In this document: piece by piece, positions 3,473 through 64,000 of the stretch
Layout: the number at the start of each line of letters is the position of its first letter
Position numbering within the stretch: the stretch's first letter is position 1
DNA from: a virus
Direction: 5' to 3' (one strand)
DNA: 64,000 bases
IMG/VR virus record: IMGVR_UViG_3300014720_000002
Made by a program: the position numbers and the translations under genes
Notes under the pieces: generated by a model
Seen by the model: the letters and a program-made list of their open reading frames with translations, nothing else
Database searches by the model: none
Told to the model about the DNA's origin: nothing

Positions 3473-4132
3473 ATGCACCTGCAGTCGTTTGTTTATCGCA
3501 ATGTCCGGTTTCGCAGCAAGGTAATGGCCGAGATGGCCTGGTGGTTGGACCGGTTTGAACTGGGCTGGGCTTATGAGCCCGAAACTTTGGTTGATGGGCC
3601 GGTCTCGGTGACGCCCGACTTCTGGCTTCCCGACATCCAGACGCTGGTGTTTGTGCAGACCCGTGTGCTGCCCAGCGACCACTGGGAGGCCAGCATGCGC
3701 ATGGTGGGGACGCTTGGCCGTCGGACCGTGTTTCTGGAAATGGACCGGCACGTCGTTGGACCGATGGAGGACATCCCCGATCCAGCGCGCCTGGTGACCT
3801 GCCTCGACGGGTTGTTCAAAGTTGAACCAAACACGGACTGCACCTTCGCCGAGCCGGGTCAGGGTTGGTTCTGGCACAGCCGCTTTGCCCAGTCCGTTTC
3901 GCACATCAAGCAGTTGGCCAGCGGCGCGCATGTGCTGCTGATTCGATGCACCGTGTGCGGCGTGGTGCATTGGACGCATCGGGCGGGCGACATGCTCTGT
4001 CCCCGGTGTCAGTTGGGCAATTCCAGCAAACCTGAGCGCTGGCAGAAGCACATCATTCCCGCGCTGCATCTTCGGACGATGGCTGAGGTGCACCGGCTGG
4101 TTGAACAGGCCCGCAGTTTTTCCGGCGCGTGA
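3473..4132 (+). CDS. PD-(D/E)XK nuclease-like protein, catalytic motif possibly degenerate
   Basis: YRNVRFRSKVMAEMAWWLD...WAYEPE...TPDFWLPD matches the common phage RFRS...YEPE...PDFWLP pattern; FVQT sits where E-x-K is expected. Confidence 0.6.
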   Translation: MHLQSFVYRNVRFRSKVMAEMAWWLDRFELGWAYEPETLVDGPVSVTPDFWLPDIQTLVFVQTRVLPSDHWEASMRMVGTLGRRTVFLEMDRHVVGPMEDIPDPARLVTCLDGLFKVEPNTDCTFAEPGQGWFWHSRFAQSVSHIKQLASGAHVLLIRCTVCGVVHWTHRAGDMLCPRCQLGNSSKPERWQKHIIPALHLRTMAEVHRLVEQARSFSGA

Positions 4133-7100
4133 CGCCGGCGTTAGCCGAGCCAGCCGGTGGGAAGTGGTTTGCCCCACCGGCTGGCTTTCAGCGGCTCGAC
4201 AAACCGTCCGAGGTGGTGTGTCATGTGGACATGCCGACTGCAATCCAGACGCCCCGGCGGGCAGTGGTCCGTGGTAGCACGCTGACCGAGGCCGACGATA
4301 CCGACGTAGAGTTTGAACTGGACAGTCCTGATCAGTTCTTCGGCTCCCACATCGGCCTCATCCCATTGCGTTCCGCGGTGGCTGGTCCGCGGCTGTTCTA
4401 CGGTGCACGGTTCTACAACCAGGCTCTTCCTTTGCCGCAGGCTGAAGCTCCGCTCGTGCAGGCGCTGGCCGACAAGGATGAGCAGGGCCGTTCGTTCGAT
4501 GAGATTCTCGGCAAGGCGGCAGGCGCTAGGCTGGCCAAGGCTGACGGCGTGGTTCGGGACGTGACGCCTGACTGGATTGAACTGGAGCTTTCAGACGGCA
4601 AACGTGAGCAGGTCGAGCTTTACAACAAGCTGCCGTTCAACCGCAAGACCAGCCTGACCAATACCCCGGTGGTGAAGCCCGGCGATCAAGTGCGCTCAGG
4701 ACAGGTGCTGGCCAAGTCAAACTTCACGGATGCAGAAGGCCGGCTGGCGATGGGGTTGAACGCGCGCATTGGGCTGGTGCCCTACCTTGGCAAGTCCATG
4801 GATGATGCCGTGGTGGTGAGCGATGCGTTCGCACGCCGGCTTTCCAGCGAGCACCTCTACGGCTACGACCTGGACAACCGCAATGGCATCAAGTTCGGCA
4901 AGGCCCATTATGCCGGCATCTTCCCTGGACGTTTCATCAAGGACCAGTTGGAGAAGCTGGATGATGACGGGGTGGTGCGTCCTGGCATGCTGGTGCAGCC
5001 TGGCGATCCGCTCATCCTGGCTACCCGGCCTCGCGTAGTGTCCAGCACGTCCGCCCAGCTTGGTTTGCTCAGCAAGCACATGAAGAACGCGCGCACCAAT
5101 GCCGCTTTGCTGTGGGATCACGACGAACCAGGGACAGTGACCGATGTGGTCCGCCTGCCCGACGGTTCGGCCAAGGTCAACGTGCAAGTCATTGAGCCTA
5201 CGCGACTTGGCGATAAGATCGTAATGCGATCCGGGCAAAAAGGGATAATTTCCGAGATCCTCCCTGACGACCAGATGCCACGCACGGCTGACGGCCATCC
5301 GTTGGAGGTTCTGCTCAATCCGCTGGGCATCCCCTCGCGGGTGAACAACTCGCTGGTTTATGAGCTTCTGCTCGGCAAGGCGGCACGCAAGAGCGGCAAG
5401 CCGTTCAAGCTGCCGGCGTTCCTGCCGGAAGGTCAGCAGTGGGACAAGATCGTTGAGCAGCATTTGAAGGATGCTGGGCTGACTGACACTGAGGAGGTCT
5501 ATGACCCCAAGTTTGGGCGCAAGCTGGAGCGGCCGGTGACGGTGGGCGATGGTTACGTGCTCAAGCTTCATCACACGTCAGCATCTAAGATTTCTACTCG
5601 CGGACAAGGGAGCTACACTTGTTTTGATGATATTACTGAAGTGTGCACGCGTCGAGGCTGGGTGGCGTGGCCGGATGTAACAGCCGACGATGAGTTCGCG
5701 ACTGCAGATGACGGCAAGCTTGTGTTCAGTAGGGCCAGCCGTATCACAAAAGAGTTTTACTCTGGAGAATTGGTAGGGTTTGAGGGACGGTATTTGGATT
5801 GGCTTGTGACTCCGAACCATAACCTTTTGGTCAAGTTCAGAAAGCCATCTAGTCGATTGCGTATGGAGCGCGCTGATGCGCTGTTCGGTAGGTCGTTCTA
5901 CGTGCCTCAGTTTGGGTTTGCTGAGTTGCATGGTAGAAATCCTCGGCGTTTTGTTTTGTCCGGTCGCGTAATTAGAGACACTCTTGGTAGGGTGTATAAC
6001 ACTCCTGGGTTTGAGTGCGAGTTTGAAGACTTTGCTGATTTTGCGGGATGGTGGTTGTCCGAAGGCGAGGTTCGTTTGACTGAAGGCAGAGTTAAGTTAT
6101 ACCAGTCAGAGAAAGCCAATCCTGCAAAGTTCCAACAGATTGAGTCGCTTTTGAAGCGGCTAGGCGTGGCCTTCAACGCTATCCGAAGGAATGGGGTGGG
6201 TGTAGGATGGCAGTTCGCCAATAAATCATTGGCTTTTTTTCTGGCTAGTGAATTCGGGTCTGGTTCTGTCAATAAGAAGATACCAGAGTTTATGCTTTCG
6301 GCGGGTTTGTCGGCGCGTCGTAGAATGTATTCCAGCATGATGCTAGGCGACGGGACTGCCGATTCATCCGGTATGGATGTGTGCTACAACACCTGCTCCA
6401 AGAGACTGGCTGATGATTTTCAGCGGCTGTGCATTGGGCTTGGGTTTGGGTCAGTGATAAGTTATAGACCGGCTACTACTAGTAGTGCTATTAGAGGCAG
6501 AGTAGTTCATTCTGGACCTATATGGCGTTGTGGTGTCAGCCTTCGTAGGAAGTTTGCCTTGGTCGAGAATTACAGCAATCGACCCACAAGGCATTATCGC
6601 CAGCACTATGAGGGATTTGTTTATTGCGCTACTATTCCTGTAACCGGCTTGTTGCTAGTCCGCAGAAATGGTAAGCCTATGTGGTCTGGTAATTCAAACG
6701 AGCAACCCGCCCACGGCGGCGGCGAAACGGCTCAGGCCAAGCGGTTGTCTGGACTGGAGTCGCGCGCTTTGATCTCGTCGGGGGCCTACAACGTCCTGCG
6801 CGAAGGAGCTACGCTGCGGGGCCAGCGCAACGACGAGTATTGGCGTCAACTGCACATGGGCCTTCAACCCCGGGACCCAGGTCGTCCGTTCATGTTCTCG
6901 AAGTTCCTGGCCATGCTGTCCGGTGCCGGCTATCTGGCGCGCAAGCTGCCCAAGGACCGGTATCGGCTTCAGTTCATGACCGATCGTGATCTGGATGGGT
7001 TGAATCCAACGGAATTGTCCAACGGTGAGATAGTTGACATCGGCACGTTCGAGCCGGTAAAGGGCGGTCTGTTCGATCCGTCCATCACTGGCCGGCAAAG

Positions 7101-7296
7101 CTGGGGTGCCATCAGGCTGCCCCAGCCCATGCCGAATCCGGCAGCCGAGGATGTGATCAGAAAGCTGCTCGGGTTGACACAGAAAGAGTTTCGTTCGGTG
7201 CTGTCCGGCGAGATGGAGTTGCCGGTAGAGACGCTGCAGAGACTGAGACATGAACAACAAGGAGTTGGACGCGGCAGTGCTGGAAGCGGTGGATAA
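4129..7296 (+). CDS. rpoB: RNA polymerase beta subunit, C-terminal half (from about E. coli residue 660), with an intein, fused to the beta-prime N-terminal segment
   Basis: LIPLRSAVAGPRLFYGARFYNQALP (cf. [25 protein letters not shown]), GDKIVMRSGQKGIIS (GDKMAGRHGNKGVIS), NPLGIPSRVN, YVLKLHH, then GEIVDIGTFEPVKGGLFDPSITG...WGAIRL (beta-prime GEV...DGLF...IFG...MGHIEL). The exact start codon is uncertain. Confidence 0.92.
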   Translation: MTPALAEPAGGKWFAPPAGFQRLDKPSEVVCHVDMPTAIQTPRRAVVRGSTLTEADDTDVEFELDSPDQFFGSHIGLIPLRSAVAGPRLFYGARFYNQALPLPQAEAPLVQALADKDEQGRSFDEILGKAAGARLAKADGVVRDVTPDWIELELSDGKREQVELYNKLPFNRKTSLTNTPVVKPGDQVRSGQVLAKSNFTDAEGRLAMGLNARIGLVPYLGKSMDDAVVVSDAFARRLSSEHLYGYDLDNRNGIKFGKAHYAGIFPGRFIKDQLEKLDDDGVVRPGMLVQPGDPLILATRPRVVSSTSAQLGLLSKHMKNARTNAALLWDHDEPGTVTDVVRLPDGSAKVNVQVIEPTRLGDKIVMRSGQKGIISEILPDDQMPRTADGHPLEVLLNPLGIPSRVNNSLVYELLLGKAARKSGKPFKLPAFLPEGQQWDKIVEQHLKDAGLTDTEEVYDPKFGRKLERPVTVGDGYVLKLHHTSASKISTRGQGSYTCFDDITEVCTRRGWVAWPDVTADDEFATADDGKLVFSRASRITKEFYSGELVGFEGRYLDWLVTPNHNLLVKFRKPSSRLRMERADALFGRSFYVPQFGFAELHGRNPRRFVLSGRVIRDTLGRVYNTPGFECEFEDFADFAGWWLSEGEVRLTEGRVKLYQSEKANPAKFQQIESLLKRLGVAFNAIRRNGVGVGWQFANKSLAFFLASEFGSGSVNKKIPEFMLSAGLSARRRMYSSMMLGDGTADSSGMDVCYNTCSKRLADDFQRLCIGLGFGSVISYRPATTSSAIRGRVVHSGPIWRCGVSLRRKFALVENYSNRPTRHYRQHYEGFVYCATIPVTGLLLVRRNGKPMWSGNSNEQPAHGGGETAQAKRLSGLESRALISSGAYNVLREGATLRGQRNDEYWRQLHMGLQPRDPGRPFMFSKFLAMLSGAGYLARKLPKDRYRLQFMTDRDLDGLNPTELSNGEIVDIGTFEPVKGGLFDPSITGRQSWGAIRLPQPMPNPAAEDVIRKLLGLTQKEFRSVLSGEMELPVETLQRLRHEQQGVGRGSAGSGG
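5620..6693 (+). mobile_element. Intein with LAGLIDADG homing endonuclease (358 aa)
   Basis: Begins CFDDITEV, block B VTPNHNL, LAGLIDADG-like FAGWWLSEG and MMLGDG, ends VYCATIP...VRRNGKPMWSGN followed by Ser(+1). Clearly AT-richer than its flanks. Confidence 0.93.
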
Positions 7297-7690
7297 CGGC
7301 CACGTTGCCCTGAAGCAGTTGAAGGAAAGGTTGGCGGAGGTGTTTAGGAACGACAAAGACATCGGCAAGCCATCGTTTGGTGGGCGCGTAGATATGAGGA
7401 TCGACGCGCTGGTTCAACGCGACCTGTTGCGTCGATTTGGCAAAGATCGATTCAAGCCCACTGGGCGGCGTAGCTGGGAGGTTCACGTCTATGCTCGCCA
7501 GCATTCGGTCGATCCGATTGCCAAGTGGTTGATTGAAGATCGAACTGAGCGAGAGGCGCGCAAGGAGGCTGAGGCTGACATACGCCGGGAGTATCCTGCC
7601 GCTGAGGATTGGACGTTGAACGAAAGACCATGGAGCTTATGCAGATTACCCCGATCCAAGGTTTCAAAGCCATCACAGCCGTCTCGTTGA
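7250..7690 (+). CDS. Hypothetical protein, possible winged-helix DNA-binding domain
   Basis: Helical N-terminus ELDAAVLEAV...LKQLKERLAEVF...RIDALVQRDLLRR; overlaps the rpoB tail. Confidence 0.4.
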   Translation: MNNKELDAAVLEAVDNGHVALKQLKERLAEVFRNDKDIGKPSFGGRVDMRIDALVQRDLLRRFGKDRFKPTGRRSWEVHVYARQHSVDPIAKWLIEDRTEREARKEAEADIRREYPAAEDWTLNERPWSLCRLPRSKVSKPSQPSR

Positions 7691-8160
7691 ACGGCTGCAT
7701 CGGCAAGGATGGGCGACTACCGTGGCATTTGCCGGAAGACCTGCAGTGGTTCAAGGAAACCACCCTGGGTGGAACCCTGGTGATGGGCCGCAAGACCTAC
7801 GACTCGGTTGGCTGCCTGCCTGGTCGTGGGCTGGTGGTCGTCAGCCGTTCTGCGGTGGTCGCCAACTGCTGCGCTTTCGATGTTCCGCCTGCGCACTTGA
7901 TCGAGCATGTGCGAACGCTGACCAGCGGAGGGCACCGGCTGTGGTTGTGCGGTGGTGCCCAGACTTATCGGGAGTTCTTGCCGTGGTGTGAGGAGCTTTA
8001 CGTGACACTGGTGCGGCAGATGGTGGATGGCGACGCCTTCTTTCCGCCCGTCAGTGCACGCGAGTTCCGGGTGCAGGAGGTGCTGCGGGACACGCCCGAG
8101 CTTCAGATTGTGAGGATGAGGAACGCAGCTTTGTTTGGTGACCATGGCCTACGAGATTGA
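7630..8160 (+). CDS. folA: Dihydrofolate reductase
   Basis: AVSLNGCIGKDGRLPWHLPEDLQWFKETTLGGTLVMGRKTYDS...LPGR; CGGAQTY; DGDAFFP. Confidence 0.96.
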   Translation: MELMQITPIQGFKAITAVSLNGCIGKDGRLPWHLPEDLQWFKETTLGGTLVMGRKTYDSVGCLPGRGLVVVSRSAVVANCCAFDVPPAHLIEHVRTLTSGGHRLWLCGGAQTYREFLPWCEELYVTLVRQMVDGDAFFPPVSAREFRVQEVLRDTPELQIVRMRNAALFGDHGLRD

Positions 8161-9132
8161 AGTGTTGGATGGAGACGGTTGGACGGTGCAGATGCTGCTA
8201 TACCTGCGGCTGAATAAAAGCCGATTCTGGGTGCATGAGATGCGGCGGTTTCCGCGTGGCAAAAGGTCGGTGGTGTCGCTGCACAAGATCCGACTGAAGC
8301 ATTCCAAGGGCTACTGCGGCAATCATCCCGGCGCGTGCGCGTTGACGGGTGATGCTGCTCCGCATCGCCGGGGCAACTGGCTTGAGGGTGCTGATTGGGT
8401 GGCGTTTCACGACATGGTCAATGATATGCTGGATGCCGCGAAGGTGCAGGCCAACGTGCATTCGGCGGGTCGGCGGTTTTGGATCCGTCGCGGCAATCAG
8501 CGCCGTGTCCGGTTCTGGGGGCGCAATCTGCTCACGCGCGCGGCAGAGTTCTTTCCAGACGAGCCGGACAGTTACGTGGTCAATGTAGGTGGCAGTGGAC
8601 TGCGCAGCGTATTTCCTCCAGGAACTCCTGGCATCCCAGAATGGCGGGTGGAAGCCGAACAGATGCAACCTTATGTCGAATTGTTCAGAGCCGGTGTGCA
8701 TTGAGCCGGCGCGGTGGAGCAAGGACCATTGGTCCTGCTTGCTGTTCCTGGAGACGGTCATCGTCGATCATCGCGGCACGTTTTCAGACCGGCTGCGCAT
8801 GAGCATGCGAACTAACCCGGAGACGCATCCGGCGTATGGTTACTGGCTGCACGATGCGCCACGTTGGCGGGCTGAGTGGGGCACTCGTGTGTTCTACAGC
8901 GATGTGGGAACCAACCTGGTTCGCCTGGACGCGCATGATGACTGGGATTGCCTGGAAGACATGGAGTCATCCGGTTTGCTGGTGAACCGTGGTTCTGCCA
9001 TGAATCCGGCGCTGCGTCTGACTGACCGAGGGGTTCGTTTGCACGGCATGGCAAGGACGCATCGTGCCGATGGCAAGAAGTTGGTGGACTTCCGGATTTC
9101 TCCGGAGACGTGGGAAGGTCTGGTGCGAATTT

Positions 9133-10056
9133 ATGATCAAGCAGAACGCGGGGTTTAAGCATAAGCTCTCCAAGGAGGCTGTGGATGCGCTGTTCAAGCC
9201 GTGTCCGGTCTGTGCGGCACGGGCGCACTTGCATGTGCAGCGTGGGCGTCCGCTTGGCTGCCGTTGTGCCGATCAGGGCGATCTTTTGACGGCGCTGTAT
9301 CGGCTGGCAGTGCCGGACTTCGACCGGTTTGAGAAGCTGCCCGGGTATCCGGTCGTCAATCTGGCCACTGGCGACTACTTGATGCGGGCCTGGGTGCGTC
9401 GGGATCAGCGCCTGTCTCCGGACGTGATGGCGGGCGGCGCCTGGATGAACAGCGGGTTCTCGTCCCGCGAGCGCGTAGAGGTCACCGGCACGCTGCTGGA
9501 CTTCGAGGTGTGGTTGCCAGAGTCGATGGTGATGTCGGCGCCGACGCCATCGGAAGTCGAGCCGACTCAGTCAGCCGTGACCATCGTGCCCGAACCTTTG
9601 AATCAGTTGCCAGTAACCATGACGACCAACCCGCAAGGTCAGATTGAAGCAGTTGTCATCGGACACGGCTTATCGCCTGTCCTCGCTGATCAGCTACAGG
9701 AATTGTTCCGCATGCAGCGCCTGCTGAACCAGCGCATCGGCGTCAACACGGACTCGATGACGGAAGAGGAGAAGACCAAGTGGCTCCTGAACTACACCCG
9801 CGCCATGCAGCAGGAGATGGCCGAACTGACCGACAGCGTCCCGTGGAAGTGGTGGGCCAAATACCAGAAGTTCGACGAGCAGAACGCGCGCGTGGAGGTT
9901 GTTGACCTGTTCCACTTCCTCATCAGCATGGCGCAGGTGCTTGGGATGAGCGCGGACGACGTCTTCGCCGTCTACGTAAAGAAGAACGCGGTCAACTTCC
10001 AGCGCCAGGAGTCAGGCTACACGCAGAAGGACGCGAACGATTCCAAGCACATCTGA
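9133..10056 (+). CDS. dut: Unknown N-terminal domain fused to a dimeric (all-alpha) dUTPase (domain about 9688-10056)
   Basis: LFRMQRLLNQRI...AMQQEMAELTDSVPWKWW...NARVEVVDLFHFLIS...YVKKNAVNFQRQESGY is the dUTPase_2 / MazG-superfamily signature. Confidence 0.9.
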   Translation: MIKQNAGFKHKLSKEAVDALFKPCPVCAARAHLHVQRGRPLGCRCADQGDLLTALYRLAVPDFDRFEKLPGYPVVNLATGDYLMRAWVRRDQRLSPDVMAGGAWMNSGFSSRERVEVTGTLLDFEVWLPESMVMSAPTPSEVEPTQSAVTIVPEPLNQLPVTMTTNPQGQIEAVVIGHGLSPVLADQLQELFRMQRLLNQRIGVNTDSMTEEEKTKWLLNYTRAMQQEMAELTDSVPWKWWAKYQKFDEQNARVEVVDLFHFLISMAQVLGMSADDVFAVYVKKNAVNFQRQESGYTQKDANDSKHI

Positions 10057-32796: not shown

Positions 32797-33720
32797 ATGA
32801 GCTACCCAATTTTAGATTTTACCTCGCCTGGTCCAGGGCTTGAGCCAGACGCCGACCGGTCGTCGTTGATGATCGTGCCAGGTCCCACGGACCTGGTGCT
32901 CTACCACTGGAAGGACTTTGATCATAAGGCACCGCGCGACCGCAGTATTTCGCCCATGACTTGGGCGGAGTTCATGGACTTTTGCCAGGAACGCTGCGAT
33001 CTGCCTTACCAGTGCGTCGATACGGTGTGCTTCAGCGGCGGCAAGCTGCTGGTGGATGCCTGGTGTGACAACTACAAGTGGGGCCGGGCACGCTCCCGCT
33101 ACACGCGCGGACTGGTGCCCATGCTGACGCGTGTGTGCGACGCCGGTCTGATTGATCGAAGTCGGACCCCGGTGTGTCTGGGTAACTGGGCTAATGGCGA
33201 GGCGTATGAGCCGCTGGGAACACTGGCCGAGATCGTGGATGACTTGATGTCAGCCCGGACGATGGTGCTGTGGCACGGCACCACTTCCCTTAACGCCAAG
33301 CGGATCGCCAAGCAGGGGTTCAAGCTGGATACGGTCAGCCTCAACAAGAGCAAGAAAGAAGCGATCTACTTTTCTGCCTCGGCATTCCGGGCCAGCTATT
33401 TTGCCCGTGATGCGGTGGTGCGGCAGCGCAAGCTGTTGAAGAAGGAAGCGCCGGCTGATTGGAGCAAGCAGAAGCTGGCGGCTATCGAGCCCTGCGTGAT
33501 TCGGTGTCTGTTCGATCGTGCTGAGGTGCTGCCGCATCTGCTGCCGGATGACGACTGGTTATCGCTGGCCAGTCATGAGGGAATTGACCCAGGTCGTGGG
33601 TTTGCCAGCCTGGCTGAGTTCGGACAGGTGGCTATGCGGGAAGTGCCAGAACACAGTCGGGACATCTGGATGTTGGACAAGCTCAGCCACGACCGAGGAG
33701 AAATCCGGAATGAAGATTAA
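32797..33720 (+). CDS. Protein with a C-terminal ADP-ribosyltransferase (PARP/ART-like) domain
   Basis: VLWHGTT...IAKQGF...AIYFSASAFRASYFA is the H-G-T / Y-F-S / Y-A core of H-Y-E clade ARTs. Confidence 0.65.
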   Translation: MSYPILDFTSPGPGLEPDADRSSLMIVPGPTDLVLYHWKDFDHKAPRDRSISPMTWAEFMDFCQERCDLPYQCVDTVCFSGGKLLVDAWCDNYKWGRARSRYTRGLVPMLTRVCDAGLIDRSRTPVCLGNWANGEAYEPLGTLAEIVDDLMSARTMVLWHGTTSLNAKRIAKQGFKLDTVSLNKSKKEAIYFSASAFRASYFARDAVVRQRKLLKKEAPADWSKQKLAAIEPCVIRCLFDRAEVLPHLLPDDDWLSLASHEGIDPGRGFASLAEFGQVAMREVPEHSRDIWMLDKLSHDRGEIRNED

Positions 33721-48373: not shown

Positions 48374-49030
48374 GTGAACGACGAGCAACTGATCAGTTTG
48401 ATGGACAAGGTCGCGGAGGATCACGCCAGCCGAGGGCAGACCTACGCCGGCGGACCCTATCGCAAGCACCTGGAGGATGTGGAGCGCCTGCTGAGGACCG
48501 CCTGTAACGTCGCCTGGGTGGAAGAGGAGTCGGTCGGCGCTTTGCTTGCCGCCGGCATCCTGCACGACTGGTTCGAGGACTGCTTTGACGGGTCGCACAA
48601 GTTCTCACACTGGCGCCTGACCGGAACGCTGATTGACTGGCAGGGTGAGTTTGGCGTGCCAGCCGTCAGCCTGATGATGGCGCTGCGCTGCTCCGATCCG
48701 CCCGGCATGTCGCGACGTGAGGCCAAACGGGCTATCTTGCCGGTTATCGTGGCCTGCGAAGGTGCCCGGGCAGTCAAGCTGGCTGATCGGATGGCGAATC
48801 TGGAGCAGAGCATTGCTGACCGCAATCGAAAGCATCTGGAACGCTACATTGAAGAGGCTAGGCAGTTAGCGCCGGTGGCGGACCAGCTTGAGACTCCGGT
48901 TGATGCAGTGCAGGAGACTCGACACTACGCCCCGGTGCGAGACTACTTGGCTGGTTGCTATGCGGATGTCCTGGCTCGGGCCGCCGAGAGTTTTCATACT
49001 CTGCGCGGCCCGACCAATGCGGTGAAGTGA
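48374..49030 (+). CDS. RelA/SpoT-type HD-domain (p)ppGpp hydrolase-like protein (small alarmone hydrolase-like)
   Basis: H..GQTYAGGPYRKHL..V...AAGILHDWFEDC...EFG...RAVKLADRMANL. Confidence 0.78.
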   Translation: MNDEQLISLMDKVAEDHASRGQTYAGGPYRKHLEDVERLLRTACNVAWVEEESVGALLAAGILHDWFEDCFDGSHKFSHWRLTGTLIDWQGEFGVPAVSLMMALRCSDPPGMSRREAKRAILPVIVACEGARAVKLADRMANLEQSIADRNRKHLERYIEEARQLAPVADQLETPVDAVQETRHYAPVRDYLAGCYADVLARAAESFHTLRGPTNAVK

Positions 49031-49376
49031 CGGTATTGGAACGCTTAGCCGCGTGCCGCCATGCCTAGCACAGGCTACGTGCGGTCCGGTCAGGTCTCGT
49101 AATGGTAAAGTGACGCAAAGTCGGGCTTCGTCGAGCGATGGCCGGGTGTGGTCAAGCAGGGTGTGGTGGTTCAAAGTTAAGGTGTCGCGTCGCCTAGTCA
49201 GGTCACGCGCCGGCAATGGATGGTGCCGTCCGGTTTAGCAGCGCAGCGGCATAGTGACGAAAAGGCCTGTAACGTGAAGCACAGGTAAGGTGCCGTGAGG
49301 CATGGTGAGGTCTGGCACAGGTAAAGCAGAGTCACGCGGGGTCCGGTTCAGGCGAGGATAGGTGGAGTCACGCAGC
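49021..49376 (+). repeat. Degenerate NGY-NN pentamer array B (candidate VIPR-like guide RNA array)
   Basis: 69 pentamers, 68 with central G, 63 exactly NGY. Units of 11,41,31,36,41,31,36,36,36,31,26 nt, all starting with GGY. Ends directly at ATG 49377. Confidence 0.9.
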
Positions 49377-53404: not shown

Positions 53405-53486
53405 TGCGCTGTGGTGCTTGGAAAGGTCTCGTGCGGTCGCGTTAAGTCACGGTCCAGTGAGGGCGTGGCAAAGTCCTGCGCGGAAC
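53405..53486 (+). repeat. Short NGY-NN pentamer array D
   Basis: 16 pentamers, all with central G, 14 NGY; two 6-nt phase steps at 53451 and 53462, each followed by GGY. Starts 6 nt after the stop at 53399. Confidence 0.7.
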
Positions 53487-53529
53487 CGCACCAGTTGGGC
53501 TTCGGCCCGCTGGTGCGGTTTCCTTTAGC
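53484..53529 (+). terminator. Nested hairpin (11-bp outer stem plus GGGC-UUCG-GCCC) followed by CCTTTAGC; closes array D
   Basis: AACCGCACCAG / CTGGTGCGGTT is a perfect stem. Confidence 0.7.
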
Positions 53530-53540
53530 CATCCACTCCC

Positions 53541-53568
53541 GCAACCAAGCACGCCGCTGTGTCATAAG
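53541..53568 (+). promoter_or_regulatory. Class I promoter GCAAC-N18-ATAAG
   Basis: Exact spacing; lies upstream of the MYG1-like gene. Confidence 0.7.
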
Positions 53569-53647
53569 CCTTTGGACAGGACTGTTTCTTGTCTGGGAGC
53601 ATCCGGCCTCCAACCATTTAAGCAACTGCCGGAAGGAGAACTGTAAC

Positions 53648-54730
53648 ATGTCAAAGATCAAAGAGGCGGCGATCCTCAAAATCGTCACTCATCCCGGCCG
53701 GGCGCACCGGGATGAGTTTCTGGCCATCGCCATCGTGCTGGCCAGCCTGCCCGCCGCGCAGATGCGGCAGGTCGCCATCGAACGCCGTCAACCCAAGCGC
53801 GAGGACACCCTGGATAAGGGCGTGCTGGTGCTGGACATCGGCGGCGGTGAATTCGACCACCACCAACTGTCCCCAGAGGCGCCGGCGACCTGTGCGCTCA
53901 CCCTGGTGCTCAAGGACCTCGGGCTGCTGGAGCAGGCGCGCGAGGTCTGGTCGTGGCTGGAGTTTGTCGAGGTCATGGACAGCAAGGGACCGGGGGCGGT
54001 CGCCTCGCGCGCCGGCGTGCCCTGGGACAAGCTCTCCGGGCTGACCATGAATCCGGTCGAGATGTGGGCGCTCCATTGGTTCGCCAACAACCCGGACAAC
54101 ATGAAGGACGTGCTCAACGGCGTCGGTGCCCGGTTGTTGTCCGAGCTTGCGGACTACCGGTCGGCCCTGACCCTCCTGGACGCGCACGCCCATGTGGTGT
54201 TCGTGCGCGGGGTGGCGTTGCTCGACCTCACATTCACGAGCGACACGACCGCCGTCAACAAGTGGCGCATGCAGCACTGCCCTCACGCCAAGGGCAGCAT
54301 CATGAAGGACGACCGCGGCGGGGGCTACACGCTCTACGCCTGGCAGATGGGCGGCGGGTCCGGCTGGCTGGACTTCCGCCGGCTGGCGCATCCCGGCATC
54401 ACCTTCATCCACAATGGAGGGTTCCTGGCCAAGACGCGGATGACGGTGACGTTCCGTGAGGTTCTGGATCTGCTGACACAGGCGCTGCCGTCGGAGCCGG
54501 TCTGCCTCGGCAGCATGGTGGGCAATGGGTTCTCGGTGCAGGGAAGCTGGCAGCCGGCGCCGACAGATGACGGATCGCATTTCGTCATGGTGACGATCGG
54601 GACGGCCAAGCACGGGTGTGTGGAAGGTATGCTCTGCTTCCGCACGGAGGCGGCGCTGCGCTCGGCCATGAGCCATGTGCGCAACCGCATTGAGATCAGC
54701 CTGTCGAAGGGGGAGGTGGCCCATGCTTGA
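53648..54730 (+). CDS. MYG1-family (UPF0160) metal-dependent nuclease-like protein
   Basis: IVTHPGRAHRDEFLA...VLDIGGGEFDHHQ...DSKGP...FIHNGGFLAKT. Confidence 0.85.
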   Translation: MSKIKEAAILKIVTHPGRAHRDEFLAIAIVLASLPAAQMRQVAIERRQPKREDTLDKGVLVLDIGGGEFDHHQLSPEAPATCALTLVLKDLGLLEQAREVWSWLEFVEVMDSKGPGAVASRAGVPWDKLSGLTMNPVEMWALHWFANNPDNMKDVLNGVGARLLSELADYRSALTLLDAHAHVVFVRGVALLDLTFTSDTTAVNKWRMQHCPHAKGSIMKDDRGGGYTLYAWQMGGGSGWLDFRRLAHPGITFIHNGGFLAKTRMTVTFREVLDLLTQALPSEPVCLGSMVGNGFSVQGSWQPAPTDDGSHFVMVTIGTAKHGCVEGMLCFRTEAALRSAMSHVRNRIEISLSKGEVAHA

Positions 54731-55639: not shown

Positions 55640-55644
55640 ATCAG

Positions 55645-57188: not shown

Positions 57189-57209
57189 GAGGTCTTTCCG
57201 TGCCATAAG
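57182..57209 (+). promoter_or_regulatory. Class I promoter GCAAT-N18-ATAAG
   Basis: Exact spacing; followed by two hairpins, an A-rich stretch and GTG at 57305. Confidence 0.7.
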
Positions 57210-57304
57210 GAGGTGACGGAGGTCTGTTATCTTCGTCCATCTGCCCCGGCTCGTCATGGCTGGGGGTGGTGGCATCCTGCAGTGGCAAAGAGAAAGACAA
57301 GACA

Positions 57305-58666: not shown

Positions 58667-59227
58667 ATGAGCATCCTGCGCGAAGTCCTGGACGACGTGG
58701 TCCAGGCATTTGGCATGACCTCGGTGCCTGACCGGCCCGAGGTCTTCGCTGGCGGTGTGCGGCTGGATGTGCCGCTGCGCTGCCAGTTGGACAGTTACTC
58801 CTGCGGCGCCCAGGCGGGCTTCACAGTCGCCCGGGCCTTGGGGAGCCGGGTTTCATACGGGCAGTTCCGGCGCAGCCTCAAGCTGTCCCGGGATGGCAGT
58901 GAGCCGGGTCAACTGGTCCGGGCACTGGTGCGGCATGGCGTCAAGGCGGACACGGTGTGCAAGCTGTCCATGGACCGCCTGCGGGACTGCATCGACCAGG
59001 GTCAGCCCGTCATCATCGGGGTGCAGAACCCCAAGGCGGATGCTGGGCACTGGGTGGTGGTCTATGGCTACGACCTGGACGCTGGCACGGTGTTCATGGG
59101 TGTCAACGGGATGCCGTGGTTCAACCGCCGGGAGTATCCCGTGCGGGAGTTCCGCAAACTGTGGGAGCCCAAGGGCTGGGGGCTGGTGTGCTCTGGCCGC
59201 CGGCGCCTGCGCTGCCGGATGAAGTGA
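58667..59227 (+). CDS. C39-like papain-fold cysteine peptidase
   Basis: QLDSYSCGAQA (catalytic Cys), PVIIGV...GHWVVVYGYD (catalytic His). Confidence 0.85.
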   Translation: MSILREVLDDVVQAFGMTSVPDRPEVFAGGVRLDVPLRCQLDSYSCGAQAGFTVARALGSRVSYGQFRRSLKLSRDGSEPGQLVRALVRHGVKADTVCKLSMDRLRDCIDQGQPVIIGVQNPKADAGHWVVVYGYDLDAGTVFMGVNGMPWFNRREYPVREFRKLWEPKGWGLVCSGRRRLRCRMK

Positions 59228-59231
59228 GCAA

Positions 59232-59283
59232 GAAGTGGGCGGGCTGGGGCGCAAGCCCTGGGCTGTCCACTTCCTTTTAGCTG
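59232..59283 (+). terminator. Nested hairpin (GGGC-GCAA-GCCC inner stem) followed by CTTTTAGCT
   Basis: GAAGTGGGCGG / CTGTCCACTTC outer stem with two G-U pairs; shares TGGGGCGCAAGCCCTGG with the 55591 element. Confidence 0.65.
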
Positions 59284-59326
59284 TCGGGTCTTGAACTGAC
59301 CGGCCTGGCTGTGCTTCACTGCGGCT

Positions 59327-61672
59327 GTGCCGACCTTGTCTCCCATGCAGAAGCTGATGGCCGCCCTGGGCACCTCGGTCCCGGAAGGTATCCTCGGTCC
59401 CCGGCTGCGCGACCTGGCGCGCGAGGGTGGGCTGGCGTTCGCGCATCCTGGTGGATGGACCGATGCCTACCGCTCCCGCAAGCGGTATGCCCCAATCTGG
59501 CGGACGGCGCAGGAACTTGGCGTGCTGCCGACCGTCACTGCTGACAAGCGCCGGCTGCGTGACTTTGCTGACGGGGCGGTGGTCAATCTCGGGACGGACA
59601 AACCGCCGTTCAAGACCACTTGGAATGCCCGTGCGCCTGACTACGCCAGAAACTGGGCCTTGTCCGACGGCTCCGTGGACAAGCTGCGTGAGGCCGAATT
59701 GTTGCACGGATTCATACCAAAGACGGAAAGCCTTCGCCGGTTCACCCGTTCTGTCAGTCTTTCTCCGGCACGACAGGCTGCGTTGAAGCAGAAGCTGGAT
59801 GCGGCATATCCCGAAGGCTGGCTCATCAAGTCGCGCGGTTATATCGGGCAGATGACATCTGACATGCCGACGGACCTGGCCGCGGCGGGCAAATGGCCGG
59901 TGTTAGACGGGCAGGCCGCCGACTGGATCGTCCAGTCCCGGCAGGACATAGGTCGGTTTGCCCAGCCGCAGGCGCAGGTTGAGCGCTGGCTGTCCAAGCG
60001 TTTCGGTGCGCGTCCGCACGGCACGCACGAATACAGGGTGCATGTGCTCAATGGTCGGGTGGTGCCTTATGCCACAAAGCACAAAGGCGGTCCGGCGCAG
60101 GGTTTTTTGGAACGCTGGATGCCGTGGAATACGGCGCGCATAAACCAGGCCGAGGCGTTGACCCAGCGGGCCGCGAACCAGCTTGGTCGCGGCGATCGTA
60201 ACAAGACTTTCTATGCTTTTGACATAGGCTTCACTAACCGAGGAAAGCCGTTTGTCATCGAGGCCAATCCTTCAGCCACTGATGGAATGTCCGGCGAGTT
60301 CGCGGACCCTCATGTTCAGGACGCCATCGCGGCGGCCATCAAGGGCCAGTTACCCAACTACGTGAAAGCGCGGCGTGGGCTGTGGGCAGGCGGCACCGGG
60401 CTGGGAGTCTATCAGGCGTTCAAGCCAGAGGATGACACCCGCCCCGCCTGGCAGCGCTGGATGGGCAAGCAGTCGAGCCGGCGCGGTGGCTGGCTGGGCG
60501 CGTTTCCAGAGTATGTCGGTCTGTTGGAGTATGTTGGTCGTCCTGGCCTGTATAAGTCGGGAGGTATGGTAACGTCTGCGCTGGCCGGAATGCTGGCCGG
60601 TCGGGGAGTTGACGTAGCCGCCACCAAACTGCTGCGCCCGCTGGTGCCGGGGTGGAATTCATGGATGCACCGTATGGGACTTGAAGCCGGCTTGACGGGC
60701 GGGACCAGGGCGTTTTTACCAAACACCAGAAGGGCTTTGGGCGCCATCTCTGGCGGCGGCACTGGGGTGGTGGATTATGAGCTTGGCAACCAGATCGGCA
60801 GCGAGGTGCGCGGACGTTACCTTAAATCGCCTGGCCTGGTGGCCCGCGACACGGCTTCCCGGCTCACCGCGGACCGCTACCTGCAGGCATTGCGGACGAA
60901 TAAGGTGCCAGGACTGGCGCGGCGAGAAGCACAGCTATTGCGTCGGTCGGCACCATCCTTCGTTCGGAGCATCGCTGCGGGAGAGGTCAGCATGACCGGA
61001 CTGACTGGTGAAAATCTGACCTCGCCGTTGCTGCGGCACGCCCGGGCCGCGTATCAACACACTGCACCTGAGTTGTTGGCGCAGGATGTGACGCAATGGA
61101 CCCGCTGGTTGCCGAAGAGGTTCAGACCGGATCCGGCAACGACGGGCATGCGGATGCAACAACATCTTTCCAAACTGACTGGACCAGATCGTCCCTGGCG
61201 GCAAGCTATCGCGGGACCGGCGGTATCGGGAGGTTTGGGAGGTTTGGGAAGTTTGGCTGAAAATCTGGGGCAGGAGTTGATTTCGGGCAGCATGGCAGGA
61301 CCAATCATTCCCAGCGTGATCGCCAGCGCCGCCGGGCATCTACCTAACACTGCCGTCAATAATGTGTTGACGGCAGGTGCGGCGGCGGGGGCGTCCAATA
61401 CACTGCAGGCATTGAAATACAAATTGATGCTAACTGGTCACCAGCAACCTCGGCCGCTGGGATGGGGCGCACGGCTGCTGGACGCGACCTTCGAGCCGAC
61501 GGCTTCAGAATTCATACGGGCTGGGCAGGATTTACGACGGCTGCAGGATTCATCGCGCAGACTGTCGGCAACCCGACAGCCGGTTCAGGCTAGGCTCCAG
61601 GCGCATTCAAATGTAGGGCAAGGATTGCAGGCCGACGCGCGTCAGCTACAGCAGGCATGGTTTAACCGGTGA
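59327..61672 (+). CDS. ATP-grasp (RimK-like) ligase domain with a long Gly/Ala-rich C-terminal extension
   Basis: WLIKSRG, WIVQ, EYRVHVLNGRVV, FYAFDIG...PFVIEANPS. Start may be GTG 59327 or ATG 59345. Confidence 0.75.
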   Translation: MPTLSPMQKLMAALGTSVPEGILGPRLRDLAREGGLAFAHPGGWTDAYRSRKRYAPIWRTAQELGVLPTVTADKRRLRDFADGAVVNLGTDKPPFKTTWNARAPDYARNWALSDGSVDKLREAELLHGFIPKTESLRRFTRSVSLSPARQAALKQKLDAAYPEGWLIKSRGYIGQMTSDMPTDLAAAGKWPVLDGQAADWIVQSRQDIGRFAQPQAQVERWLSKRFGARPHGTHEYRVHVLNGRVVPYATKHKGGPAQGFLERWMPWNTARINQAEALTQRAANQLGRGDRNKTFYAFDIGFTNRGKPFVIEANPSATDGMSGEFADPHVQDAIAAAIKGQLPNYVKARRGLWAGGTGLGVYQAFKPEDDTRPAWQRWMGKQSSRRGGWLGAFPEYVGLLEYVGRPGLYKSGGMVTSALAGMLAGRGVDVAATKLLRPLVPGWNSWMHRMGLEAGLTGGTRAFLPNTRRALGAISGGGTGVVDYELGNQIGSEVRGRYLKSPGLVARDTASRLTADRYLQALRTNKVPGLARREAQLLRRSAPSFVRSIAAGEVSMTGLTGENLTSPLLRHARAAYQHTAPELLAQDVTQWTRWLPKRFRPDPATTGMRMQQHLSKLTGPDRPWRQAIAGPAVSGGLGGLGSLAENLGQELISGSMAGPIIPSVIASAAGHLPNTAVNNVLTAGAAAGASNTLQALKYKLMLTGHQQPRPLGWGARLLDATFEPTASEFIRAGQDLRRLQDSSRRLSATRQPVQARLQAHSNVGQGLQADARQLQQAWFNR

Positions 61673-61676
61673 GCCT

Positions 61677-61704
61677 GCAACGGAAGTCGTCCGCGGGGTA
61701 TAAG
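61677..61704 (+). promoter_or_regulatory. Class I promoter GCAAC-N18-ATAAG
   Basis: Exact spacing; followed by the hairpin GAGCAGAC/GTTTGCTT. Confidence 0.65.
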
Positions 61705-61822
61705 ACTGTGAGCAGACCGTTGTTTGCTTGGTCGTCCTGTGGACGGCGTAATTCGTGGAGCATATACGTGTATGTTGAAAGCATTACTAAGCGGGATTAA
61801 CGGCGCCGTAAATGGGGCGGAG

Positions 61823-62191
61823 ATGAAACAGCAAAACGACGCCTTGCGAAAAGTATTGGAGCAAGCGATCAAGGTCGCAGTCAGCCCGGAAGCAACACCG
61901 GACGAGATGGATAAACTGAGTCAGCGGCTGGGCGTAGCTGCCTTAGCTGCGGAGGGCTTGGCCGCGCTGGAGCAACAGGAGGCCTACAGCAGGTTTAACC
62001 GGCTGGCCCGCAACTTCGACCTTCAACTGGAGGCGCTGCCGGCGCTGCTGACTGCCGCCCATGAAACCTTGCCAGCCGGAGATCCAGGCAAGGCGGTGCT
62101 GCAGTTCCTTACGGCCCGGACACCGCTGGAACTGGCGGCCGCTATACTCGCGCTCAAGAAGCTCCGGCGCGAAGAAGCTCCGGCGGTCTAG
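61823..62191 (+). CDS. Hypothetical helical protein (start may be 61772)
   Basis: ORF between a class I promoter and the 62193 hairpin. Confidence 0.55.
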   Translation: MKQQNDALRKVLEQAIKVAVSPEATPDEMDKLSQRLGVAALAAEGLAALEQQEAYSRFNRLARNFDLQLEALPALLTAAHETLPAGDPGKAVLQFLTARTPLELAAAILALKKLRREEAPAV

Positions 62192-62192
62192 C

Positions 62193-62237
62193 CAGCTAAA
62201 AGAAAGCTATCCGACGGGGGTAGTTTTCTTTTAGCTG
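62193..62237 (+). terminator. 17-bp hairpin immediately after the stop at 62191
   Basis: CAGCTAAAAGAAAGCTA / TAGTTTTCTTTTAGCTG (one G-U pair). Confidence 0.65.
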
Positions 62238-62251
62238 TTGGGTGTGTGGTG

Positions 62252-62290
62252 TTGCCATTCCGCTACCGGGCTGGCACGCTGTCCGGCATG
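62252..62290 (+). promoter_or_regulatory. Class II leaderless-type promoter TTGCCA-N17-CACGCT-N7-ATG
   Basis: Spacing identical to 55645-55683. Confidence 0.6.
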
Positions 62291-64000
62291 ATTCAAGCCA
62301 GCACCGAACCCTACGACCCCCTGCTGGACGCGAAGGCCGCCGGCATCCGCGCCGATCTGCGCGCCGCCGAGTCTACCACCAACCGGGAGCCGACCAAGGC
62401 TCAGATCCGCGCAGAAAATTACGCCAAAGGTGAGTTCAAGTGGCAGGGGTTGACGGTGCGCATCGAGAATCCCCGGGGCAGTGTGCGCAGCGGTGTCACA
62501 AAAGACGGACAGCCTTGGAGCCGAACGCTCAGGCACATTTACGGCCATCTCTGCACGAAGCGACATGGGCGCAGCGATGCGGACGGCGACGGTATCGACA
62601 TCTTTGTGGGCGATCATCCCGACAGCGCGTTGGTGGGTGTGATAGACCAGTTCATCGACGGCAAGTTCGATGAGGTAAAGTGCGTCATCGGATGCCTGGA
62701 CGCAGCCGACGCAGAACGCGTCTATCTGGCCAACTACCAGAAGAATTGGGACGGTTGCGGAGGGGTGACACTACTGACCGCCGAGCAGTTCAAGTCCTGG
62801 GCGAAGAACGGCGACACCGGCAAGCCGCTCAAGGGGCAGGACATGGCTTCGTTTCACAAGACCGCGCTGGACTTCAGCGAGGAGAGGCGCAAGCCGATTG
62901 GCTACGACGCCGACGGCAACATGGTCTGCGGTGACGGTTCAATCTTCGCTACCCGGGAGGAGATGGAAAAGCTTCGCCGACCGGCCGGCGCGCGGCTGGA
63001 CCAACTGGCTGTGCTGCCGCCAGGAATCACCGTTGAGCCAGGCAATGCGAAGGCAGCCGACGACCGCGCCTGGCATGTGGGGCGGAACACCGGCGAGATC
63101 AAGGAGGCCCGCACCGGCTTCCATCGCCCTGAGAACTTCGACCTCCTCAAGGAGCACAGCACGGAGAAGCTCAAGGTGGAGGCCGGCTGCAATGACTGGG
63201 AATCCGCCTGGACCGGCATCACCTTCACGTTCCCCGACCTGGGGCGTCAGGTCTGGGCGCACTTGACACCGCCCGCCACCTGTATCGACTCCGAGACGCC
63301 CAGCAAGGACCTGCCGCCCAGGGAGGAAATCCACGACTGGCAGGACAAGCTGGTGAAGGCATGGCTGTCTGCGGCCAAGGAACTGGCCCGCCAGGAGGAC
63401 GCCAAGCTGCATCCCGAACACTTCCTGCAGGCGGCCAAGGACACCCAGGTCAAGCAGTGGGTGGAGGCGGTGGGCGAGAACCGCATGAAGTGGGATCCGG
63501 TGAAGCAGGCATCCGTGGCGCCTCCAGCCGCCCAGCCGGAGGTCCAGGCTGGTCCGCCGCGCACCGGCCCCGAGGCCATCCTGCACGCCCTGCAGAACCT
63601 CGACCTGGACAAGCTCCGGGCTGACTCGATGGACGTGGTCCACCGCAAGCTCAAGAGCAAGCGCCCCGCTGCCGTGCAGATCCTGGGCTATCTGGAGGGT
63701 CTCAAGCGCGCCGAGATTCAGCCACACCAGTTGATGATCAGCCGGGTGCCGGTGCTGCCGCCCCAGTTCCGGCCGTTCTCTGCGGCTGGCGAGGCATTCA
63801 TCCCCGGCGATGCCAACGAGCTTTACCGCGACCTGTTCAACGTCCGGTCGGTCTATGAGCAGATGCGCGAGCGGCTGGGCGAGGAGGGGTCGCGGGCCGC
63901 GCGGCTCAACCTCTATGACGCCATGTCCGCGGTTTATGGGTTTGGCGAGCCGGTGTCCCCCAAGACGCGGGAGCGCGGGGTGACGGGGTTCCTGAAGACC
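62288..64000 (+). CDS. rpoC: InPase-like domain plus an unknown domain fused to the RNA polymerase beta-prime continuation; 3-prime partial and absent from the supplied ORF track
   Basis: Open frame from ATG 62288 to the window end (my translation). IENPRGSVRSG...PWS...YG...DGDGIDIFVG...IDQ...FDEVK...YLANYQKNWDG is the InPase of polyvalent proteins. From about 63561, TGPEAILHALQNLDLD...LMISRVPVLPPQFRP...DANELYRDL matches RpoC GAEAI..LL..DL...MIL.VLPVLPP.LRP...DLN.LYR. Confidence 0.9.
   Translation, partial: MIQASTEPYDPLLDAKAAGIRADLRAAESTTNREPTKAQIRAENYAKGEFKWQGLTVRIENPRGSVRSGVTKDGQPWSRTLRHIYGHLCTKRHGRSDADGDGIDIFVGDHPDSALVGVIDQFIDGKFDEVKCVIGCLDAADAERVYLANYQKNWDGCGGVTLLTAEQFKSWAKNGDTGKPLKGQDMASFHKTALDFSEERRKPIGYDADGNMVCGDGSIFATREEMEKLRRPAGARLDQLAVLPPGITVEPGNAKAADDRAWHVGRNTGEIKEARTGFHRPENFDLLKEHSTEKLKVEAGCNDWESAWTGITFTFPDLGRQVWAHLTPPATCIDSETPSKDLPPREEIHDWQDKLVKAWLSAAKELARQEDAKLHPEHFLQAAKDTQVKQWVEAVGENRMKWDPVKQASVAPPAAQPEVQAGPPRTGPEAILHALQNLDLDKLRADSMDVVHRKLKSKRPAAVQILGYLEGLKRAEIQPHQLMISRVPVLPPQFRPFSAAGEAFIPGDANELYRDLFNVRSVYEQMRERLGEEGSRAARLNLYDAMSAVYGFGEPVSPKTRERGVTGFLKT

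Follow-up and report, generated by a model that had tools for sequence, protein, structure and literature searches.

Does an RNA polymerase (RNAP) whose chain breaks off inside the clamp and is taken up again 55 kb further along a phage genome still amount to one enzyme, and how did such a break come about? The question was raised by a 64,000-nucleotide stretch of viral DNA (hereafter, the window), corresponding to bases 16542–80541 of the 167,647-bp IMG/VR virus record IMGVR_UViG_3300014720_000002, which is estimated to be 86% complete. In a preliminary description, made from the letters alone, an open reading frame (ORF) at 4129 was read as the C-terminal part of β joined to the start of β′, with the adjoining segment of β′ near 63561. 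The window has a GC content of ~61% and comes from an uncultured phage of lake water; its sequence was present at 130–170x depth in public lake-water metagenome runs, with no RNA run among them. By protein search, the nearest cultured relatives (31–34% identity) were Salmonella phage Arash and then Vibrio phages D69/D181/D148, and the genomes of relatives reach up to about 195–220 kb. A scan of IMG/VR with both RNAP proteins of the window found no close relative.

We consider it likely that the phage encodes a single RNAP of the Arash/“mReC” kind, divided among five genes and interrupted by three inteins, with a non-covalent core and a cut between β′ regions A and B that carries enzyme modules. 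The ancestral layout would have been β fused to the N-terminal half of β′, plus a separate C-terminal half of β′; in this lineage the fused gene would have been cut three more times, giving five genes. The inteins would splice out of the β active-site region, the position directly after NADFDGD, and the trigger loop, and the five polypeptides would then join non-covalently into one core. The clamp cut between regions A and B may occupy a surface site that tolerates large lineage-specific inserts, and strand WGAIRLPQP of fragment 3 is predicted to pair with strand VPVLPP of fragment 4, as inside an unbroken β′. The cut would have freed an N-terminus directly ahead of a clade-specific insert domain, and to this N-terminus different phages appear to have attached different enzyme modules, here an InPase. 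The anatomy of the enzyme, its conservation, its single copy, the purifying selection on it and the reproducibility of its layout are direct observations.

The enzyme is encoded on a single strand, over 93 kb of the record, by five genes in chain order:

Genome about 5639–6676, same strand as the other RNAP genes: gene 1, βN1 (located by tblastn).
Genome 7625–8302, same strand as the other RNAP genes: gene 2, βN2 (Rpb2 domain-3 match, PF04565).
Window 4129–7296, plus strand: gene 3, βC::β′N1 (PF00562).
Window 62246 onward, plus strand: gene 4, InPase::pre-B::β′N2 (PF00623 and PF18823).
Genome 95669–98671, same strand as the other RNAP genes: gene 5, β′C, 1000 aa (PF04998).

The N-terminal half of β, which had been placed outside the window, was thus found at genome 5639–8302, itself in two genes. 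When gp206 and gp216 of Arash were searched by tblastn, they tiled the genome once, in order and without overlap:

gp206 19–288 on genome 5681–6436.
gp206 270–468 on genome 7736–8296.
gp206 492–925 on genome 20841–22157.
gp206 926–1104 on genome 23232–23753.
gp206 1139–1439 on genome 80080–80949.
gp206 1438–1524 on genome 82432–82686.
gp216 11–327 on genome 95684–96634.
gp216 346–599 on genome 97856–98641.

All β and β′ segments were present exactly once, as judged from this tiling and from PF04565 in βN2 and PF04998 in β′C. Each catalytic barrel likewise occurred once, PF00562 and PF00623 each matching a single gene of the record, so the fragments appear to be complementary parts of one enzyme and not of two paralogues. 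NADFDGD, the trigger-loop motif and the conserved motifs of β are all intact, and by its sequence the enzyme is a multisubunit two-barrel (double-psi β-barrel) RNAP with a β/β′ core. Between βN1 and βN2 we also observed a SleB-type cell-wall hydrolase gene (PF07486, genome 6615–7067) whose start resembles a signal peptide, together with an unknown ORF of 190 aa.

The upstream gene of the window is organised as follows:

4129–7296, plus strand: βC::β′N1 gene, 1055 aa read from GTG 4129 (Pfam, tblastn, relative P0005).
4231–5619, plus strand: β N-extein, comprising the flap/sandwich-barrel hybrid motif and the second double-psi β-barrel region, from ~656 of E. coli β (PF00562, PDB alignment of P0005).
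5620–6693, plus strand: intein 1, 358 aa, absent from P0005 (LAGLIDADG_3 Pfam match).
6694–6963, plus strand: β C-extein, the C-terminal clamp part of β (PDB alignment, AlphaFold2 (AF2) model of P0215).
6964–7224, plus strand: β′N1, equivalent of region A without the Cys4 zinc-binding domain, ending in GEMELP (hhalign, continuity in relatives).
7225–7296, plus strand: non-conserved 23-aa tail and stop codon, the conserved break point (split-form clusters, high-depth contigs).

In the product (P0001), the C-terminal ~45% of β runs in frame into ~90 residues from the start of β′. Comparison with the gene call of a relative, whose proteins are labelled P0005, P0127 and P0389, points to ATG 4231 as the likely true start: P0005 (654 aa, 89% identity to P0001) begins where P0001 has M35, and about 660–697 aa are predicted for the spliced product. 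Residues 137–497 of P0001 matched the Pfam family RNA_pol_Rpb2_6 (PF00562) at 9e-52, and β chains in the PDB matched the βC part at 2e-53. The ORF had been said to begin at about β residue 660; residues 32–280 of the intein-less P0005 indeed align to E. coli β 656–902, and the alignment extends to the end of bacterial β. Past the C-terminus of β, the frame of P0001 continues for ~110 residues without a stop. Arash gp206 residues 492–925 and 926–1104 match this one frame, in agreement with the claim that the ORF crosses the β/β′ boundary uninterrupted.

On the AF2 model of P0215, a relative with a continuous junction, β chains superposed up to model residue ~545–560, where bacterial β ends; the fold search with this model listed only β chains, one row per entry. 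Residues 951–988 of P0001, as a profile of 35 homologues, aligned weakly but collinearly to Salmonella RpoC 26–63 (hhalign E 0.012, 38 columns), the stretch that ends in GLF just ahead of the zinc-binding domain. The phage chain has GGLFD and, 9 residues on, WGAIRLP, and residues 946–1055 contain no Cys; on this sequence, a bacterial-type Cys4 zinc-binding domain is absent from β′N1. The chain terminates 23 aa past GEMELP. Immediately upstream lies ORF 3473–4132 (219 aa), whose end overlaps GTG 4129; it has a weak zinc-ribbon-like signal, is kept at the equivalent place in a related 196.8-kb contig, and in the protein atlas resembles only unnamed viral clusters.

The downstream gene contains the following parts:

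62246–64000, plus strand: 5′ part of the InPase::pre-B::β′N2 gene, which runs off the window end (whole gene, genome 78787–82701, 1304 aa).
62399–62806, plus strand: InPase domain, family-I pyrophosphatase-like and of the polyvalent-protein type, aa 52–187 (Pfam PF18823).
63098–63556, plus strand: clade-specific “pre-B” domain at the junction of β′ regions A and B, aa about 285–437 (homology and AF2 fold).
63560–64000, plus strand: β′N2, with region B (RTGPEAIL) and the clamp helices, toward the NADFDGD barrel (PDB alignments).

The likely start is ATG 62288, by the gene call of the relative. Homology to β′ was expected to resume near 63561 and does so at RTGPEAIL, aa 439 of the ORF (window 63560); from there the β′ part of this product (P0124) aligns to E. 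coli β′ from residue 179 onward and through NADFDGD, which stands at aa 714–720 (window position 64385), just past the window end. The corresponding point is residue 454 in T. thermophilus β′ but residue 163 in a construct without the lineage-specific domain. The Thermus domain therefore sits at the same spot, and the break site is already known to accept a large insert.

The 438 aa ahead of this point are a real coding extension made of the InPase domain, a linker and the clade-specific domain. The InPase profile was fully covered (positions 2–135) at 1.5e-37 and 128.9 bits, against a cut-off of 26.8; the motifs IENPRG and DADGDGID (D-x-D-x-x-D) were recognised by eye, and the best solved match was the C-terminal domain of a phage portal (9b41_L, 2e-23). 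The pre-B domain has homologues at the N-termini of the shortest stand-alone β′N2 fragments and among the in-frame inserts of 132–220 aa in fused relatives such as P0206 and P0201, and the chain cut lies directly before it. It folds confidently in AF2 (block pLDDT mostly 80–97); used as the query of a fold search, the pre-B/region-B model gave nothing beyond helical-hairpin matches of a generic kind to the clamp helices (best Z 7.1), uninformative on pre-B. As to the neighbouring genes, a 781-aa ORF two genes upstream (window 59327–61672) gave sub-threshold ATP-grasp R2K matches (PF18299/PF14243, ~1e-4), and a free-standing HNH endonuclease gene ~3 kb downstream (genome 85556–86227) adds to the load of homing elements near the RNAP genes. 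A PHROGs search of the genes downstream of the β′N2 gene found this HNH endonuclease and a deoxynucleoside monophosphate kinase and no structural proteins, so we make no claim that the gene lies in a structural module.

Did the two pieces once adjoin in a single ancestral chain? Near-adjacency had been proposed from bacterial RpoC, and relatives with the junction intact were indeed found. Arash gp206 (1525 aa) holds β and the N-terminal half of β′ in one protein, with ~40 residues between the two junction motifs. In the closer relative P0047, GEMDLP is followed after ~20 residues by TGPYAIQAAL and then by the catalytic motif, uninterrupted, and P0215 is likewise continuous. Among the cluster representatives, 98 have a junction gap below 45 aa, mostly of 2–6 aa. 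Since the junction is continuous in Arash gp206 and P0047, the two pieces correspond to adjacent parts of one ancestral β::β′ fusion. A search with the 198-aa junction region retrieved 1017 cluster representatives at E<=0.001, all of which span the β/β′ border. The β(C)+β′(N) fusion is therefore clade-wide and, far from being a local oddity, is ancestral to this phage RNAP clade as a whole.

The retrieved junction proteins fall into 148 that stop at the break, 98 that are continuous and 23 with an in-frame gap of at least 100 aa at or beside the break, some of these gaps beginning after the TGPEAI motif, i.e. as inserts slightly downstream of it. In the 143 split clusters with a β part, the chain ends 2–36 aa (mode 4) past G-x-x-ELP. 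In a FastTree phylogeny of 242 sequences, midpoint-rooted, split forms make up 138 of the 155 tips of one clade (support 0.996) that is nested among continuous lineages including Arash and itself contains two small fused or insert-bearing sub-clades. This topology fits one old fission followed by occasional re-fusion.

The preliminary description had further proposed a clean split inside the clamp, produced by insertion or rearrangement of the intervening 55 kb. The split does lie within the clamp, at the border of regions A and B; the proposed cause found no support. The break is common to a clade of at least 138 clusters and is older than the divergence of that clade, and the spacing of the two genes has drifted. 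They lie 58.9 kb apart, on one strand, in an independent assembly (ENA ERZ27267695 k141_906850, 196,801 bp, with the genes of P0005 and P0127), and 11.5 kb and 4.3 kb apart in the more distant GCA_029288695.1, which has a NUDIX module, and SRR29078152_3613, compared with 55 kb here. The intervening 55 kb hold mostly small unknown ORFs, together with a dUTPase_2 gene, a weak PARP-like match and a MYG1-like exonuclease match (9064–10056, 32797–33720 and 53411–54730). In the 196.8-kb relative, DHFR and dUTPase_2 genes lie directly downstream of the RNAP gene. An intergenic stretch at 49021–49376, from a stop codon to the next ATG, has a visible 5-base periodicity, with G at every fifth base, mostly followed by C/T.

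Selection on the parts of the two genes was assessed against the 196.8-kb relative. The ratio of nonsynonymous to synonymous substitution rates (dN/dS) was 0.07 for βC::β′N1, 0.10 for the β′N1 tail and 0.07 for β′N2, compared with 0.20 for the InPase domain and 0.32 for the linker; the RNAP parts are under purifying selection. We also predicted the structure of the complex, as the preliminary description had suggested, from residues 858–1055 of the βC::β′N1 protein and 430–720 of the InPase-β′N2 protein. An interface was predicted with ipSAE 0.88, against 0.01 for the best control, with partner pLDDT of at least 74 and at least 59% of contacts common between runs; of 80 solved complexes, 58 reach the mark of the tool, as do 2 of 110 mismatched pairs. 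Contacts of the highest confidence joined WGAIRLPQP (aa 992–1004) with VPVLPP (aa 495–509), and this predicted strand pairing supports the equivalence of β′N1 and region A. Solved RNAPs hold the same contact within one chain, so the result expresses likeness to them and is not proof of binding.

Three LAGLIDADG inteins, each with paired LAGLIDADG motifs, interrupt the enzyme. The preliminary description had overlooked them, as it had the InPase fusion and the changing modules on the new N-terminus. They were defined by the close relative, whose proteins read straight through each site (a slash marks the site):

Intein 1, 358 aa, window 5620–6693: at GQGSYT/SNEQP, in a conserved region of β near the active site; absent from P0005.
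Intein 2, 496 aa, genome 80947–82434: exactly after the last Asp of NADFDGD; absent from P0127.
Intein 3, 385 aa: in the trigger loop, at GALN/TKHSGGG; absent from P0389.

Intein 1 begins with Cys1, ends in SGN and has Ser at +1, where P0005 reads GQGSYT/SNEQPAHGGG. Intein 2 also has Cys1 and ends LFVQD/T, i.e. with a C-terminal Asp before Thr, which is unusual, Asn being usual. LAGLIDADG_3 and Hint matches were found in Pfam, and the PF14890 intein model gave only a weak match on the genome, at intein 2. From these features, the inteins would splice out. All three intein-less alleles lie on the one 196.8-kb contig (~90% protein identity), so gain or loss of the inteins is recent. Among the 143 split forms, 80 have no intein, 55 have one and eight have two.

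What might the new N-terminus of β′N2 serve for? Across relatives the extension ranges from 0 to 912 aa and carries, besides the InPase seen here, NUDIX (the commonest alternative), NUDIX with a 2H phosphoesterase, DUF5661, a ligase OB domain, DUF4269, an AAA_18 kinase-like domain with a glucosaminidase, LysM or SET. In P0155, P0163, P0164 and P0180, a LigD 3′-phosphoesterase domain stands C-terminal to β′N2, and P0155 also has the ligase OB; in another relative (locus L013 4522–5489) the next gene has a LigD 3′-phosphoesterase domain. These LigD domains beside β′N2 hint at a link to RNA-end repair. Mass spectrometry of purified Arash virions placed gp206 as the most detected protein and gp216 as the fifth (PMC10585845). 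Iyer et al. described the InPase domain as typical of virion-packaged polyvalent proteins and proposed that it hydrolyses nucleotide signals or clears pyrophosphate (PMC5512222). Taken together, the Arash virion proteome, the portal-linked InPase match, the type of InPase and the LysM/glucosaminidase modules of relatives suggest packaging, without proving it, and we suspect that the phage packages this RNAP in its virion and ejects it, the N-terminal module serving as cargo or as helper.

A tentative extension of this idea is that the clamp cut is adaptive: it may free the N-terminus of a virion-packaged RNAP subunit to act as a swappable carrier for host-directed or entry enzymes, from pyrophosphatase and NUDIX to 2H phosphoesterase, LysM/glucosaminidase and SET, that are ejected with the polymerase, and five small pieces may allow passage through the tail and reassembly in the host. 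If true, polyvalent proteins and N4 gp50 would have a counterpart among multisubunit RNAPs, in hundreds of uncultured ~200-kb phages. Concerning the role of the module, it is also conceivable, if again doubtful, that the InPase is a catalytic helper that hydrolyses the pyrophosphate made by the polymerase, and neither an ejected effector nor a packaging handle. The family-I pyrophosphatase signature motifs are retained (by eye), pyrophosphate clearing is among the roles proposed by Iyer et al. (PMC5512222), NUDIX is also a pyrophosphohydrolase, and virion RNAPs of the AR9 type have a fused HD phosphohydrolase (PMC7598289). However, the LysM, glucosaminidase, SET and ligase-OB domains at the equivalent position have no connection with pyrophosphate and are better suited to cargo or to a part in entry, many relatives lack a module altogether, and the dN/dS of the InPase lies above that of the core.

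The remaining alternatives concern the enzyme as a whole. Phages of the phiKZ/AR9 type have two scattered sets of RNAP fragments (PMC7598289), and with a record 86% complete the two ORFs could in principle belong to different paralogues, one virion and one non-virion, each completed elsewhere. We regard this as very unlikely. Instead of two sets, the 167.6-kb record has a single Rpb2_6 (PF00562) gene and a single Rpb1_2 (PF00623) gene, the fragments cover the Arash proteins with neither overlap nor duplication, and the two segments are 2–40 aa apart in one chain in continuous relatives. The idea that the phage has given up this RNAP, leaving the fragments as decaying remnants, might draw on the unusually many interruptions (four gene breaks and three inteins), on the lack of a zinc-binding domain and on the lack of a detected sigma factor. 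It is less probable still, given dN/dS of 0.07–0.10 on all RNAP exteins, intact catalytic and conserved motifs, the presence of every segment once, and a set of fragments kept across hundreds of clusters.

A chimeric or mis-joined assembly, in which the β′ segments are contiguous in the real genome, is hardly credible, although the source is a metagenome contig and Logan contigs break at 6475–6814, inside the gene. These breaks are 30-base unitig overlaps and not joins. The 130–170x contigs run through the stop codon at 7294–7296 to window position 9000; the independent contig, which comes from another sample and is ~90% identical at the aa level, agrees in the stop and in the 59-kb separation; the C-terminus is common to 143 clusters; and the downstream gene begins with 438 aa of its own, an N-terminal extension under purifying selection. 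With hundreds of related phages sharing the layout, we are looking at real biology and not at an assembly error. That the pieces are rejoined covalently, by split-intein trans-splicing or at the RNA level, into an unbroken mature subunit would suit an intein-rich genome with three inteins in one enzyme but is just as implausible, because no Hint half beginning with Cys/Ser is present in the 23-aa tail past GEMELP, the downstream protein begins with the InPase domain and not with an intein C-half, tails of relatives are only 2–4 aa at their shortest, and the two genes, separated by dozens of others, each have a start and a stop of their own.

We therefore return to a single enzyme in five pieces. 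No split-intein halves lie beside the break, so assembly must be non-covalent, as in enzymes of the phiKZ/AR9 type (PMC7598289), and we infer from the sequence that the five polypeptides assemble in this way into one core. The window and the genome record differ at 28 single bases (e.g. 859, 6854, 7431, 9971 and 63283); at 6854 and 7431 public contigs match the genome record and not the window, and one of the differences replaces Trp by Cys at residue 346 in the InPase-β′ protein. No tRNAs were found in the 64-kb window.

Several points weigh against this explanation. β′N1 is equated with region A of cellular β′ mostly by its position in continuous relatives, its similarity being weak; a phmmer search of β′N1 against the PDB gave no match even at E 10. 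A Sigma70_r2 search of the 86%-complete record found no sigma-like factor, which leaves promoter recognition without explanation, and a second RNAP set could, strictly speaking, lie in the missing part of the record. The sample behind the midpoint-rooted tree is biased, and the direction of change read from it, one fission with re-fusions, is tentative; several fissions may have taken place instead. Splicing, assembly and activity are all inferred for this phage, and the suspicion of packaging draws on domain associations and on a cultured relative of 33% identity in which the form is unsplit.

If the explanation holds, an RNAP core tolerates cutting and re-partitioning far past the textbook cases, with a subunit made of the end of β and the start of β′, five polypeptides and three splicing events. 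The junction of regions A and B in the clamp would offer engineers a place, already used in nature, at which to split RNAP or to add domains. Fused, split and insert-bearing clusters, along with close relatives with and without inteins, are natural experiments on assembly, intein homing and gene fission or fusion. Were the modules delivered as cargo, phage transcription would be tied to host takeover or defence evasion in a large group of uncultured freshwater phages. In annotation, such fragments should not be labelled pseudogenes or plain “β subunit”.

How does this enzyme compare with known systems? In cellular rpoB-rpoC fusions (Helicobacter, Wolbachia), the C-terminus of β is likewise joined to the N-terminus of β′. 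Natural splits such as cyanobacterial and plastid rpoC1/rpoC2 or archaeal A′/A″ and B′/B″ illustrate that the large subunits work when cut at surface sites. The cut between regions A and B is, to our knowledge, not among the known cellular split sites, and we know of no cellular case that combines the fusion with a cut 90 residues into β′, shifting the subunit borders. The lineage-specific insert of Thermus/Deinococcus β′ occupies the same chain position as the phage cut, between regions A and B; in Thermus, however, the insert is in frame and the chain unbroken, whereas the phage has a different insert domain and the chain is cut directly before it.

RNAP inteins elsewhere (archaeal Mja rPol A′/A″, eukaryotic RPB2/RPA2/RPC2; PMC1635734) likewise have homing endonucleases and occupy the most conserved positions near the active site. 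Here, unlike in those cases, the bearer is a phage, three inteins lie in one enzyme, a ~90%-identical relative has none of them, and intein 2 ends in Asp. Polyvalent proteins are likewise multi-module, with InPase, NUDIX and lysozyme-like domains, and are thought to be packaged and injected; the survey of them reports only N4-type single-subunit RNAP modules and no multisubunit β′ fragment (PMC5512222). An RNAP fused to a virion protein is known in the P23-45 tape-measure type (PMC10770324). Compared with such virion-delivered RNAPs (N4 gp50, P23-45), packaging in the present phage is suspected from genes and relatives.

Split phage RNAPs (phiKZ, AR9), RNAP inteins, polyvalent proteins and a metagenomic clade of RNAP-encoding tailed phages (PMC7481178) were thus already known. 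In the literature that we searched, we found no subunit straddling the β/β′ border, no conserved cut between regions A and B, no modular enzyme domains on a new β′ N-terminus, and no three inteins in one phage RNAP. The metagenomic clade, the “mReC” RNAP-encoding Caudovirales of Weinheimer and Aylward (2020), is probably the one to which this phage corresponds; their paper describes no fusions, extra splits or accessory domains (PMC7481178). Arash gp206/gp216 belong to the same RNAP clade, with 31–34% identity over both exteins and a match that crosses the β/β′ boundary. As in our phage, β of Arash is fused to the N-terminal half of β′, and β′ is cut after the catalytic barrel at an identical place. 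Unlike in our phage, β of Arash is unbroken, the junction of regions A and B is continuous within one 1525-aa protein, and there are no inteins and no InPase. A tblastn search of the present genome with neighbouring proteins of Arash, including the portal, detected no similarity. Other cultured relatives of the Arash group are Vibrio phages D69/D181/D148 and Cobetia phage Carin-5.

RNAPs of the phiKZ/AR9 type also consist of 4–5 polypeptides from dispersed genes (PMC7598289, PMC7824862), have β′ cut past the catalytic barrel and have no alpha or omega subunit. One of their enzymes is packaged in the virion, and in AR9 an extra HD phosphohydrolase domain is fused to a fragment (PMC7598289, PMC7824862). 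Whereas those phages have two enzymes, the phage described here has one, which is much closer to cellular RNAP in sequence and, unlike theirs, has a subunit straddling β and β′, an additional clamp cut between regions A and B, variable N-terminal modules and three inteins.

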